This document shows, piece by piece, positions 45,052-48,517 of a stretch of DNA of 64,000 nt; the stretch's first letter is position 1, and the number at the start of each line of letters is the position of its first letter. The stretch is from Desulfarculia bacterium. Lineage in GTDB: Bacteria; Desulfobacterota; Desulfarculia; Adiutricales; JAGVGV01. The translations under genes were made by a program, and so were the position numbers. The DNA is taken from positions 1,388,449 to 1,452,448 of the forward strand of contig OY759590.1 in assembly GCA_963662445.1 (NCBI GenBank), read 5' to 3'. Below the pieces are notes generated by a model. The model had not been told where the DNA came from and did not search any database. It saw only the letters and a list, made by a program, of their open reading frames with translations.

Positions 45052-45918
45052 TCAGGCCGTTTTACCGGTCGAGTCCAGGGCCAGTATGATCCCGCTGGCG
45101 ATAACCAGAACCCCGCCCAGAACCTGTCTCAAGGCCACAGCCTCACCGAAAAGCAGAAAACCCAGGGCCGCGCCCATGACTATTTCCGACATGCCGATGA
45201 CGCCGACTTCGGCGGAAGCGATGGAAGAGAGGGATTTGCACAGGGAGAGCTGGGCCAGGGCGGCGGTCACGGCTATGGCGGCCAGGGCCAGCCCTCCGGC
45301 CATGGTCAAGGGCTGATGATTCCCGCCCAGGGTCAGGGCGCCCAGGGAGACGAAAGCTCCGGCCAGGCAGAAATAGAAGAAGGGAGTCAGGGCGTTGTTG
45401 TCCCGGCTGTAGCGGCGGACCATGGTCAGGGCCAGGCCCTGCAGGAGGCCCGCGCCGACTCCGACCGCGTGCCCCCAATGCAGCCCCCCGCCGAGTTCTC
45501 CCGGCCAGAGGATGAAGCCGGTGCCGCAGAAAGCCAGGCCGATCAGCCCCCAGAGCTTCAGACTGGTCTTTTCTCCGCAGAGAAAAGGCGAAAAAAGGGC
45601 GGCGAAAGCGGGATACAGATAAAGCAGAAGCAGGGCTTCGAAGATGGGCAGCCTGATGAGAGCCACGGTCAGGCAGATGACGCCTGCGACCGTGGTCAGT
45701 CCGGTCAGGAGCATGGCCGCACGGTTCCGGCCCAGGAGGCTGAGTCCCATTTTTCTGGCCAGCAGAACGGTCAGCAGCAAGCCGAAGGCGGCTCTGGCCA
45801 GAAGCATCTGCCACGGTGTGAGTCCTGCCGATGAAAAACGGGTGATAAGGTCGAAGAGGGCGGCGAAGACGGCGGCGGAAAAGGCGAAGGCCAGGCCCTG
45901 GATTTTTCTTTCCTGCAC
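45052..45918 (-). CDS. DMT/EamA family transporter
   Basis: About 10 TM helices in two repeats. Confidence 0.85.
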   Translation of the reverse strand: MQERKIQGLAFAFSAAVFAALFDLITRFSSAGLTPWQMLLARAAFGLLLTVLLARKMGLSLLGRNRAAMLLTGLTTVAGVICLTVALIRLPIFEALLLLYLYPAFAALFSPFLCGEKTSLKLWGLIGLAFCGTGFILWPGELGGGLHWGHAVGVGAGLLQGLALTMVRRYSRDNNALTPFFYFCLAGAFVSLGALTLGGNHQPLTMAGGLALAAIAVTAALAQLSLCKSLSSIASAEVGVIGMSEIVMGAALGFLLFGEAVALRQVLGGVLVIASGIILALDSTGKTA

Positions 45919-46146
45919 GTGAGAGGACCTCGCTGGTAAACAGGCTTTGCCCGCGCCGTATTGTCAGGCCTTGGGCGGATACGGGGGAGCGTCTGTGCGC
46001 CGGAGAGTTCAGTGGTCCGGAGCTGCTAAAATCTAATATATCAGCAAGCAGGTGTGGCGGCAATGAGAATCGGCGGCAGGAATATCTGGTGAAAGTGCCG
46101 TGTTATCAATGTATTATTGGTGAAGCCAGGAGGACGGTATCCCATA

Positions 46147-46270
46147 GGGGGCAGCGACCAACGGGAGCGCCGGGGGCAAAGCCCCCGGAAGAAGGTCCAG
46201 GCGACAGCCTGGGGTGCAGGCGGCAGCCTGGGGTGCAGGCGGCAGCCTGGGGTGAGGGGCGGATAGCCTC
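46147..46270 (+). repeat. Palindromic REP-like element with three tandem 19-bp units
   Basis: GGGGGCAGCGACCAACGGGAGCG head; (CAGGCGRCAGCCTGGGGTG)x3 at 46198-46254; homologous to 59604-59672. Confidence 0.8.
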
Positions 46271-46277
46271 GGTTCCG

Positions 46278-47501
46278 TCAGTTCTCGAAGCGGTGGGTTT
46301 GGACCCGGGGCACCAGCATCAGGACGCCCAGCTTTTTCATCGCTTCATCCTCGGCGGCCAGGCATATTTTCTTCATCTCATTGATGACCTTGGCGGCAAA
46401 GGTCCGGCCCCAGAACCAGTCGGCCAGCGCCGAGCTGTCGGTGGTCTGGCCCGGTTGGATGGCCAGGGCCTCGAAATAGGCGGCCTTGACATCTTCCACG
46501 GCCAGTTTGAGGGCCGTCGCCTGAGACTGGCCGGGCAGCCAGTTGTCGTATCGGCTTCCCCGGACAAAACCGGCCAGAAAATCCACGGTCTCTTCCAGTT
46601 CGTGTCCGGTGGTCCCGCTGGTGGTGCGTCCCTTCCTTTCCCTGGCCAGATCGAACCAGGTGCGCATTTGCAGGGCTTCGGCCCGGAAATCGGCCAGCAG
46701 GCGTTCGATGGGTGACAGTTGCTCTTCCGGTTGAGGAAAGCTGACCGGGCAGGCCGGCAGCACGGCTTCGGAAGAAGAAGCGGGGGCTTCCTCGGGGAAA
46801 TCGGCCAGCACAGGGCCTGATCCGGCTTCCAGGAGATTGAGGGCTCCGAGCAGCACCCGCATCTGAAATTCCGGGTTGTCCGGTACGCCGAAGGGGCGAC
46901 CAAGTTCAAAAGGAACCCACAACGCACGGGGCGGCCTTATGGCTTCGGTGTGCTCCCTGACCAGGCTGATATGAGTGGTGGCCAGCCCGGCTTCTTCCAG
47001 GTGATGGGCCAGCGCGCCCACGGCGCGCGTGCAGAGAGGTCAGACCGGGGCCAGCAGCACGGCGTCGACGCCTTCGCCTTTCATGATGCCTGCCAGTTCA
47101 CGGGCCGGTGCGGCCAGTTGTTCCGGCGTGGCCGCGCCCATGAAGGAATAATGACAGGAGGCCAGGGAGCCTATCCGGCCCTGGGCGGCCAGTTCCCGGA
47201 GGCGGTCCAGGGGGAAGACCACGTTGAGGTCCCGCTGAAAGCCTGTCCGGTCGAAATTGGTGGAGATGTGGCTCATGACCAGATCGCCGGGTGACGTGTC
47301 GGTCGGGATGACGCGGTAATCGGCCGCGCCCGGAGTGAAGGGGCGGTCGTTTCGGCGGTGGAGCCCGGCCGTGGAGATGAAGGCCAGTCTGCGTTCTGAC
47401 AACGGTGGGCCGGTGACCCAGGGTTGTGTTTCGTAAGTGGGGCAGGCGACGGCCAGCAGGTGGTTGCGTTCACATTCGGGCATGCGGTCGAGTCGGGCCA
47501 T
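46278..47501 (-). CDS. Selenoprotein: D-proline/glycine reductase component B (PrdB-like) domain with UxxC plus C-terminal extension; UGA 47042-47040 read as Sec154; 407 aa
   Basis: ISTAGLH, DLNVVFPLDRLREL, HYSFMG, then LLAPV-TGA-PLCTRAVG in frame with ORF 46278..47021 (RPPRAL, LGRPFG). Confidence 0.88.
47012..47028 (-). promoter_or_regulatory. Bacterial SECIS-like hairpin of the PrdB-like gene
   Basis: GCGCGCC-GTG-GGCGCGC; loop begins 18 nt after UGA. Confidence 0.7.
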
Positions 47502-47593: not shown

Positions 47594-48517
47594 TCAGCGG
47601 ATGACTCTTTTTCTCAGCCAGATCATCAGGCGGCCGTCGATGGCGGCCAGACCCAGGGCGATGAGACCCATACCTGCAGCGTGCTGGCAGGACAGGACTT
47701 CACCCAGAAAAACCGCTCCGAGGAACGAGGCGCTGACCGGGATGAGCAGGGTTACCAGCAGGATGTTGGTTGCCCCGGCCGAGGCCAGTATTCTGAAGTA
47801 GATCAGATAGGCTCCGGCGGTGCATATCACGGCCAGGCAGAGAACCGAGCCCAAGGCCGCCGGGCCGGGCACGGGCAGGGTCCAGGGGCGGTCCGCCCAC
47901 AGGGTCAGGGGCAGCAGCAACAACGCTCCTGAAGCGACCTGGCCCGCGGCCGTGACCAGAGGCGGCAGATGACGGAACCTGCGGCCGAAGATACCGGCCA
48001 GGGCGTAGGAAAAGCCCGCACCCAGGACGGCCAGTTGGGCCGCCAGATTCATTCCCAGCCCTCTGAGTGCTTCCGGTCCGATCAGAACCGCCACTCCGGC
48101 CAGTCCCAGACAGACGCCAAGCATCTTTTTGCCGGTCAGACGCTCGTCCCGGGTCAGGCAGTGGGCCAGCAGGACGGTGAAGACCGGCGTGGCGGCGTTG
48201 AGGATGGAAGCCAGGCCGCTGCCTATCCTGTTCTGTCCCCAGACTATGAGGCAGAAAGGGATCATGTTGTTCAGCGCCCCCATCAGGAAAAAGGACAGCC
48301 AGAGGCCCGGCGAACGGGGCAGGCTTCTGCCCAGGGCGTAGACCATTATAATCAGAATGATTCCGCCCAACGAAACCCGCCCAAAGACAATGGTCAGCGT
48401 CGGCAGGTCGGCCAGGGCGATTTTGTTGAAGAAAAACGAGCCGCCCCAGATTACGGACAGCAGTAACAGCAGAGCCCACTCCACCGGACTCATTGTGGTT
48501 CTTATACCTTCGTGCAC
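47594..48517 (-). CDS. DMT/EamA family transporter
   Basis: IWGGSFFF, GLASILNAATP, duplicated EamA repeats. Confidence 0.9.
   Translation of the reverse strand: MHEGIRTTMSPVEWALLLLLSVIWGGSFFFNKIALADLPTLTIVFGRVSLGGIILIIMVYALGRSLPRSPGLWLSFFLMGALNNMIPFCLIVWGQNRIGSGLASILNAATPVFTVLLAHCLTRDERLTGKKMLGVCLGLAGVAVLIGPEALRGLGMNLAAQLAVLGAGFSYALAGIFGRRFRHLPPLVTAAGQVASGALLLLPLTLWADRPWTLPVPGPAALGSVLCLAVICTAGAYLIYFRILASAGATNILLVTLLIPVSASFLGAVFLGEVLSCQHAAGMGLIALGLAAIDGRLMIWLRKRVIR

Follow-up and report, generated by a model that had tools for sequence, protein, structure and literature searches.

A 407-residue selenoprotein gene split in annotation at its UGA codon, and its predicted place in a long, stand-alone PrdB-like family

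Introduction

Are two consecutive open reading frames (ORFs) that share a frame and are parted by a single TGA two small genes, or one gene whose TGA is read as selenocysteine (Sec), and in the second case what might the product do in a genome where the usual partners of its relatives are not found? The question is raised by a minus-strand locus in a 64,000-nt stretch of the genome of a Desulfarculia bacterium (contig OY759590.1; this whole stretch is called the window, and all numbering refers to positions within it). The first-pass annotation, made from the letters of the window, had described the two ORFs as a hidden selenoprotein resembling PrdB of clostridial D-proline reductase, with an extra C-terminal domain and no reductase partners nearby, and had proposed a distinct, possibly self-sufficient oxidoreductase acting on a substrate carried by two flanking transporters. 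In the Prd system the selenocysteine of PrdB is described as attacking the C-alpha of pyruvoyl-bound D-proline, the enzyme being re-reduced by PrdC (PMC11229817). With a probability that we put at roughly 0.6, the locus is an intact 407-residue selenoprotein gene of a stand-alone, long PrdB-like family whose product works as a self-contained selenol/thiol reductase; that it is a genuine selenoprotein gene, whatever the product does, we regard as nearly certain.

Results

The ORFs at 47040..47501 and 46278..47021 (both minus strand) lie in the same frame in the ORF list and are split by one TGA (47042..47040). When this codon is read as selenocysteine (U) a single frame of 407 residues results, in which U occupies codon 154 and no further stop intervenes, and the junction reads ...DAVLLAPV-U-PLC-TRAVGALAHH..., so that the UxxC motif recognised earlier (U154-P-L-C157) is present; the length, the ~165 extra C-terminal residues and the PACPVSF linker were also all as stated. 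Homologous loci were taken from a scan of one genome per species, in which 588 of 604 pattern matches encode relatives; the best 80 loci were kept for all locus comparisons, and family alignments and counts given as 'of 81' comprise these 80 and the window gene. Homologues forming two separate genes in different frames were looked for, and at every one of the 80 loci the similarity to the window protein is instead one high-scoring segment pair in one frame over about residues 1-400. The aligned codon is TGA in all of them, and the only other stop inside any of these frames is a TAG in one locus (L093), at codon 403, which is probably its true end. An arrangement shared in this way by all 80 fetched loci is far beyond chance. 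The N-terminus (MARLD..) and the C-terminus (..VPRxQxHRF) are also kept in the alignments.

Cys-containing forms were found as well. A word-indexed search of a public protein collection returned 1466 hits, and among the 120 listed 110 are proteins of 228-266 aa that hold the post-TGA part only, the other 10 being longer. Seven of the longer proteins (P0003, P0004, P0006, P0007, P0008, P0012 and P0036), all full-length, have Cys at the Sec column (PV-C-xx-C-TR), and the remaining three have gaps there. The window protein is 42-62% identical to the 80 loci and the Cys forms over residues 1 to ~405, and its full-length collinearity with the family includes the helical C-terminal domain and the PV-U/C-PxC-TR and ACP motifs. 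For the source genome the collection holds only the 247-aa post-TGA piece (P0002), in keeping with the description of the selenoprotein as hidden.

A GC-rich hairpin resembling a selenocysteine insertion sequence (SECIS) had been placed with its loop 18 nt downstream of the UGA, and this spacing is correct: the stem starts 11 nt and the loop 18 nt after the UGA, and the hairpin is present in the minimum-energy structure. Across 77 distinct sequences standard pairs fill 90.2% of 539 pair cells, compared with 30.6-58.6% in controls that shift the 3' arm by 1-3 columns, and three of the seven stem pairs show compensatory change on both sides (one sequence each), a result that 8 of 500 shuffles reach. 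The lowest third-position entropies (H) among 76 conserved four-fold-degenerate columns belong to T158, R159, A160 and G162, which are the stem codons (H 0.29-0.67; gene median 1.67), and the loop codon V161 has H 1.65. That the four stem codons are the most constrained at synonymous sites points to selection on the RNA and not on the protein. An Rfam search of 46800-47200 at permissive E-values gave two chance-level rows and no SECIS family.

The source genome, a single complete 4.83-Mb contig, was checked for the machinery of Sec insertion, as the first-pass annotation had suggested, and all of it was found: tRNA-Sec, selA (628 bits), selB (375 bits) and selD (364 bits), the protein matches being above curated cut-offs. 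A reading of UGA-154 by SelB is supported by the conserved hairpin 11 nt downstream together with a complete genomic machinery, as far as can be predicted from sequence. The selD gene of this genome (G000:C1:2047587, locus L011) itself contains an in-frame TGA (...RAAG-U-AAKLGPGDL) followed by a hairpin, which suggests that the selenophosphate synthetase of the source organism is also a selenoprotein. At one homologous locus, in a Methyloligellaceae genome (L083, 4431-5867, minus strand), selA lies directly upstream of the selenoprotein gene.

Profile searches agree with the description of the product as PrdB-like and set it apart from PrdB itself. The best NCBIfam match is TIGR04483 (110.2 bits, aligning residues 33-225 with profile positions 26-219 of 238), which misses the equivalog cut-off of 300. 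The GrdH, GrdF and GrdB models match residues ~78-205 only, with TIGR01918 at 49.2 bits (below its subfamily cut-off of 65.45), and the Pfam GRDB family PF07355 scores 38 bits against a gathering threshold of 22 over residues 80-151 only (72 residues; profile positions 273-345 of 347). An AlphaFold2 model built on a 54-sequence alignment (predicted local distance difference test, pLDDT, 88.5; predicted template modelling score, pTM, 0.87) is made up of an alpha/beta part (residues 1-240), a disordered stretch (243-258) and an all-helical part (264-405), and C251 sits in the sole disordered stretch of this otherwise confident two-domain model. P152, U154, P155 and C157 are present in 81 of 81 members and C251-P252 in 80; R63, D84, N93, H117, R192 and R202 are among many further invariant polar residues outside the Cys/Sec set. 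The features of the locus are collected in Table 1.

Table 1. Positions of the selenoprotein gene, its elements and the genes on either side of it (window numbering).
Feature	Position	Strand	Evidence or remark
Complete selenoprotein gene	46278..47501	-	407 codons and terminal TGA; ATG at 47501, preceded by GAGGAA
Cys20, N-terminal Cys-Pro motif	47442..47444	-	C in 76/81 members; conserved but dispensable
PrdB-like alpha/beta domain with U154 and C157, residues 33-225	46827..47405	-	TIGR04483 E 1e-31; PF07355 38 bits; Rossmann-like in the AlphaFold2 model
Selenocysteine codon UGA, residue 154, motif PV-U-P-x-C-TR	47040..47042	-	Aligned TGA in 80/80 loci; Cys in 7 full-length homologues
SECIS-like hairpin	47012..47028	-	7-bp GC stem, 47028-47022 with 47018-47012; GUG loop 47021-47019
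Flexible linker, residues 243-258, with Cys251-Pro252	46728..46775 (Cys251 codon 46751..46749)	-	pLDDT <50; C251 in 80/81
Family-specific all-helical C-terminal domain, residues 264-405	46287..46712	-	pLDDT 93.6 when modelled alone
Upstream EamA/DMT transporter gene	47594-48517	-	PF00892 E 2.8e-43; context only, not part of the system
Downstream EamA/DMT transporter gene, 288 aa	45052-45918	-	PF00892 E 1.1e-20; ~360 nt from the selenoprotein gene; context only

The extra C-terminal domain is real and conserved in the family. Structure prediction and comparison, which had been put forward as a check on this part of the protein, gave a confident helical domain whose best matches among solved structures, at VIA Z 5.5 and Foldseek E 1.6, are not convincing, although an absent match does not prove a new fold, and in the ESM Atlas no usable hit was obtained. 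With the whole model Foldseek found nothing in the PDB at E <= 0.001, and a wide VIA-align search returned only generic Rossmann-like structures of the LacI, periplasmic binding protein and short-chain dehydrogenase/reductase types (Z 7-8.8, residues 32-240), with no PrdB or GrdB structure among its rows; a phmmer comparison of the full protein with PDB sequences yielded a chance hit only (E 0.25). When the helical domain was compared by phmmer with 1.84 billion representatives, 451 proteins were found, of which the best 150 are all no longer than 291 aa and carry the domain at the C-terminus, so that they appear to be post-TGA fragments of the same long PrdB-like family; no other architecture for the domain was found in these searches. 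A search for fused long forms of 715-2040 aa also found none, which is weak evidence.

The absence of prdA, grdE and grdA had been claimed for the surroundings of the gene, with a genome-wide check advised, and the claim held for the complete source genome: the PF09338 (PrdA/GrdE) profile gave no match, nor did PF04723 (GrdA), although no positive control gave a match for the latter and its result is the weaker of the two, and GrdC was not detectable. As a control PF09338 was run on five more chromosome-scale genomes in which the family occurs, and it matched in two (G001 and G002) and not in the other three, which validates the search and shows the partner to be dispensable. Each of the six PF09338 genes in G001 and G002 is at least 0.23 Mb from the long-form gene. 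In G001 (Entotheonella) three GrdE/PrdA-like PF09338 genes, near 1.40, 2.38 and 4.56 Mb (loci L096-L100 and L121), each adjoin a GrdB-like gene with one TGA; the long stand-alone form lies apart from them at 2.139 Mb, in a genome with a rich set of B-type selenoprotein paralogues.

The gene neighbourhood was compared by clustering 654 flanking ORFs from 81 loci and by a Pfam scan of the 142 nearest neighbours at the 80 other loci (8 of 150 having been dropped). No neighbour family recurs in more than 8 of the 81 loci, and EamA, PF09338, GrdA and thioredoxin are found in none of the 142 nearest neighbours; the neighbours of the window gene belong to no recurrent cluster. The absence of PF09338 and PF04723, of a conserved neighbour and of a fused long form together support the stand-alone status of the protein. 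The most recurrent neighbour is a regulator with MEDS (DcmR-type sensory) and HTH_17 domains, which accompanies the gene at 8 of the 81 loci, always on its strand, either downstream (L052, L073, L080, L086, L087 and L094) or ~1.1 kb upstream (L037 and L057), and directly downstream, within 71 nt, in five of the eight, a pattern suggestive of dedicated regulation within one clade. At 7 of the 81 loci a class-I pyridine-nucleotide disulfide oxidoreductase is encoded no more than 5 kb away; in L016 and L090 it is adjacent and on the same strand. A DedA/VTT membrane domain is fused to it or lies beside it in L016 (3594-5836), L029 (2771-5104; 1.2 kb downstream of the long PrdB-like gene, same strand) and L090 (3685-5979), and this pair may represent the reductant of the long form or a link with metalloid handling. 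Genes for flavin mononucleotide (FMN) reductases, CMD/AhpD-like proteins, glyoxalase, glutathione S-transferase and nitroreductase are also minority neighbours. In three Desulfobulbaceae and Desulfurivibrio metagenome-assembled genomes (MAGs; L065, L072 and L088) the gene is surrounded by those for glucose-6-phosphate dehydrogenase, 6-phosphogluconate dehydrogenase, transaldolase and FMN reductase, pentose-phosphate surroundings that form an NADPH-supplying context.

In the species-genome scan the long form was found in Desulfobacterota, Geobacter, Pseudomonadales, Alphaproteobacteria, Dehalococcoidia and SAR324, which are non-Stickland taxa. Its occurrence among 40 relatives is patchy, with full-length matches in G008, G009, G011, G015 and G017 and a partial one in G013, and the best identity there (56%) is not above that seen in other phyla (up to 62%). 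Two side features of the window itself lie on the downstream side of the gene. A 19-bp unit (GGTGCAGGCGGCAGCCTGG) is repeated in 3.2 tandem copies with 95% matches at 46194-46254, within the gap before the downstream EamA gene, and a 306-aa ORF (45143-46063, minus strand) that overlaps this EamA gene in another frame has no Pfam match and is probably spurious.

Discussion

The proposal of a self-contained selenol/thiol reductase draws only on homology, on the conservation of residues and on the placement of C251 in a disordered stretch. By analogy with PrdB, the U154 selenolate would attack an electrophilic centre of a small substrate directly, and C157 would resolve the adduct to leave a Se-S bond. 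Cys251, carried on the mobile linker (with Cys20 where present), could then take over the oxidising equivalent from this bond and hand it on to thioredoxin or to a flavoprotein disulfide reductase that depends on NAD(P)H. Packed on the catalytic domain, the helical C-terminal domain may take the place of the PrdA/GrdE partner, which would make the enzyme self-contained. A more specific version, which we put forward as speculative and rather improbable, is that the long PrdB-like proteins are selenoenzymes that cleave bonds reductively and, as single polypeptides, need no partner. In them the helical domain would replace PrdA/GrdE as the subunit that presents the substrate and the mobile Cys251 arm would replace GrdA/PrdC as an internal relay of electrons, the substrate being an abundant small molecule with a leaving group next to a carboxylate or similar electrophilic carbon (a betaine-type or sulfonium osmolyte, or a halo-acid). 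If this were true, such an enzyme would explain the rank of the family among the commonest bacterial selenoproteins of sea and sediment.

Several observations weigh against the reading of the locus as a self-contained selenoenzyme, at the level of both the RNA and the protein. The covariation score of the hairpin equals the shuffled mean (0.090 vs 0.090; it is reached by 235 of 500 shuffles), and the 91-nt region, folded as a single sequence, shows no gain in stability over shuffles (z -0.58). At stem pair 17-29 a Gly codon in place of Ala leaves a G-G mismatch in 35 of 77 sequences. Since the covariation score is no better than that of shuffles, the support at RNA level consists of pairing conservation, synonymous-site constraint and the three single compensatory cells. 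A relay role for C251 and C20 is suggested by conservation, and five of the 81 members, like the Cys forms P0006-P0008 and P0012, do without C20. Redox-type neighbours are, by raw count, a minority. The proteins of this family may also depend on a partner whose gene always lies elsewhere.

The alternative that survives best is that there is no substrate turnover at all and that U154, C157 and C251 serve as ligands in a protein that senses redox state, binds selenium or a metal, or acts as a chaperone. Three near-invariant chalcogen residues together with C20, the want of any recognisable substrate-binding partner, a helical domain without a recognisable fold and the DedA(VTT)-flavoprotein reductase neighbours in L016, L029 and L090 would all fit such a role, and pairs of this kind recall metalloid handling. 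Sec is, however, usually kept for catalysis, the B proteins homologous to the alpha/beta domain are catalytic, and the many invariant polar residues suggest a pocket; a purely ligand-binding protein seems unlikely.

Far less probable is that the enzyme acts on a metabolite moved by the flanking EamA/DMT transporters, the three genes forming one module. The first-pass annotation was right that both flanks are co-oriented EamA genes (E-values in Table 1), and the upstream gap is only 92 nt, yet the inference it drew from them, that these transporters carry the substrate, did not hold up: EamA is in none of the nearest neighbours at the 80 other loci, and no gene next to the window gene belongs to a recurrent cluster. 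In addition, there is a promoter-like site immediately upstream of the gene, while the gap of ~360 nt with its tandem repeat lies downstream; the best of the 40 relatives searched is only 56% identical, too distant for a comparison of synteny in close kin. The EamA flanks are coincidental and peculiar to the source genome.

About equally improbable is a classical D-proline, glycine or betaine reductase, of which the protein would be the B subunit while the genes for its pyruvoyl or A-protein partners lie at other places in the genome. PrdB is indeed the best family match, followed by GrdH, GrdF and GrdB, and two of the five other genomes with the long form do have PF09338 genes. Against this, both partner profiles found nothing in the source genome, PF09338 is also missing from the other three, the PF09338 genes in G001 each stand beside a GrdB-like selenoprotein gene of their own and far from the long form, the scores fall short of the PrdB and TIGR01918 cut-offs, and PrdB (a 238-position profile) lacks the extra domain. 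Finally, a true stop at the TGA, with two separate genes or a pseudogene as its consequence, as the output of gene callers, the 247-aa piece stored as a protein and the negative Rfam result might suggest, is very improbable, as all 80 homologues across several phyla share the frame and the single TGA with conserved sequence on both sides, the Cys forms continue uninterrupted through the Sec position, the hairpin and the synonymous-site constraint are located exactly after the TGA, and the joined protein is modelled as one domain over the junction (pLDDT 97-98 around residues 140-160).

For the source genome the immediate consequence of a selenoprotein gene is a repair of the annotation, one 407-residue selenoprotein taking the place of two 'hypothetical' fragments. 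The wider consequence stems from the fact that the family is very common, with at least 588 relatives in species-representative genomes besides the 1466 hits in the protein collection, and that gene callers nearly always truncate its long-form proteins. Surveys label it 'proline reductase' despite the missing partner subunit, and the current name of an abundant selenoprotein is probably wrong. The question of its substrate concerns one of the most widespread bacterial selenoproteins, and the conserved U154/C157/C251 triad and the family-specific domain offer concrete targets for trapping.

How does the long form compare with what is known? In the Sargasso Sea and Global Ocean Sampling (GOS) selenoproteomes (PMC1088965, PMC2398784) one of the most abundant families is 'Proline reductase PrdB' (pfam07355, UxxC), with 42 genes in the former and 235 Sec and 110 Cys sequences in the latter. 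Compared by descriptors only, this marine family resembles the long form in its pfam07355 assignment, its UxxC motif, its abundance outside clostridia and its Cys homologues, and relatives of the window gene occur in marine lineages; it differs in that the survey texts, in the parts available, separate no long form and mention no C-terminal domain. The accessible parts of reviews from 2022 and 2026 likewise name 'D-proline reductase TIGR04483' only, with no separate long form. A literature search for 'PrdB-like' with selenoprotein was without match and no paper characterising the long form was found; 'GrdB-like' selenoprotein led to a paper on fluoroacetate dehalorespiration. NCBI names one full-length Cys form 'glycine/sarcosine/betaine reductase selenoprotein B family protein'. 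The novelty implied by the word 'distinct' in the first-pass annotation was overstated, as Cys forms are already named and a marine 'PrdB' has been listed since 2005. By its sequence relationships, the window gene is best classified as a member of a known, catalogued but functionally uncharacterised 'long' stand-alone PrdB-like family.

Among the closest known systems are the short stand-alone PrdB-like selenoproteins (~250-300 aa), which share the catalytic domain and the one in-frame TGA and likewise occur without a PF09338 neighbour. The helical C-terminal domain is absent from them, their identity with the window protein is 32-36% over residues ~30-236, and their TIGR04483 scores are higher (139-173 bits). 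Examples occur in G009, G001 and G002 and at L085 (869-1612, minus strand), where in a Clostridiales MAG a ~240-aa PrdB-like gene with one TGA, scoring 173 bits with TIGR04483, lies 4.4 kb upstream of the long form; no match over the PrdB cut-off was obtained when three genomes were searched with TIGR04483. GrdB, GrdF and GrdH (PF07355, TIGR01918) share the core around the Sec; the PF07355 gathering threshold is passed, over 72 residues, and the TIGR01918 cut-off is missed. The window protein matches only the last ~75 PF07355 profile positions and is without the ~270-residue N-terminal part of GrdB. PrdB of clostridial D-proline reductase (TIGR04483) is homologous over residues 33-225 and carries its Sec in a UxxC motif at a nearly equal position (U151 in C. 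difficile PrdB, as given in PMC11229817, compared with 154 here). The window protein parts from it in its score of 110 bits against a cut-off of 300, in coming from a genome without PrdA, in the occurrence of its family in non-Stickland taxa and in its build, having 407 residues with a linker and a 140-residue helical domain whereas PrdB is a single domain of ~240 residues.

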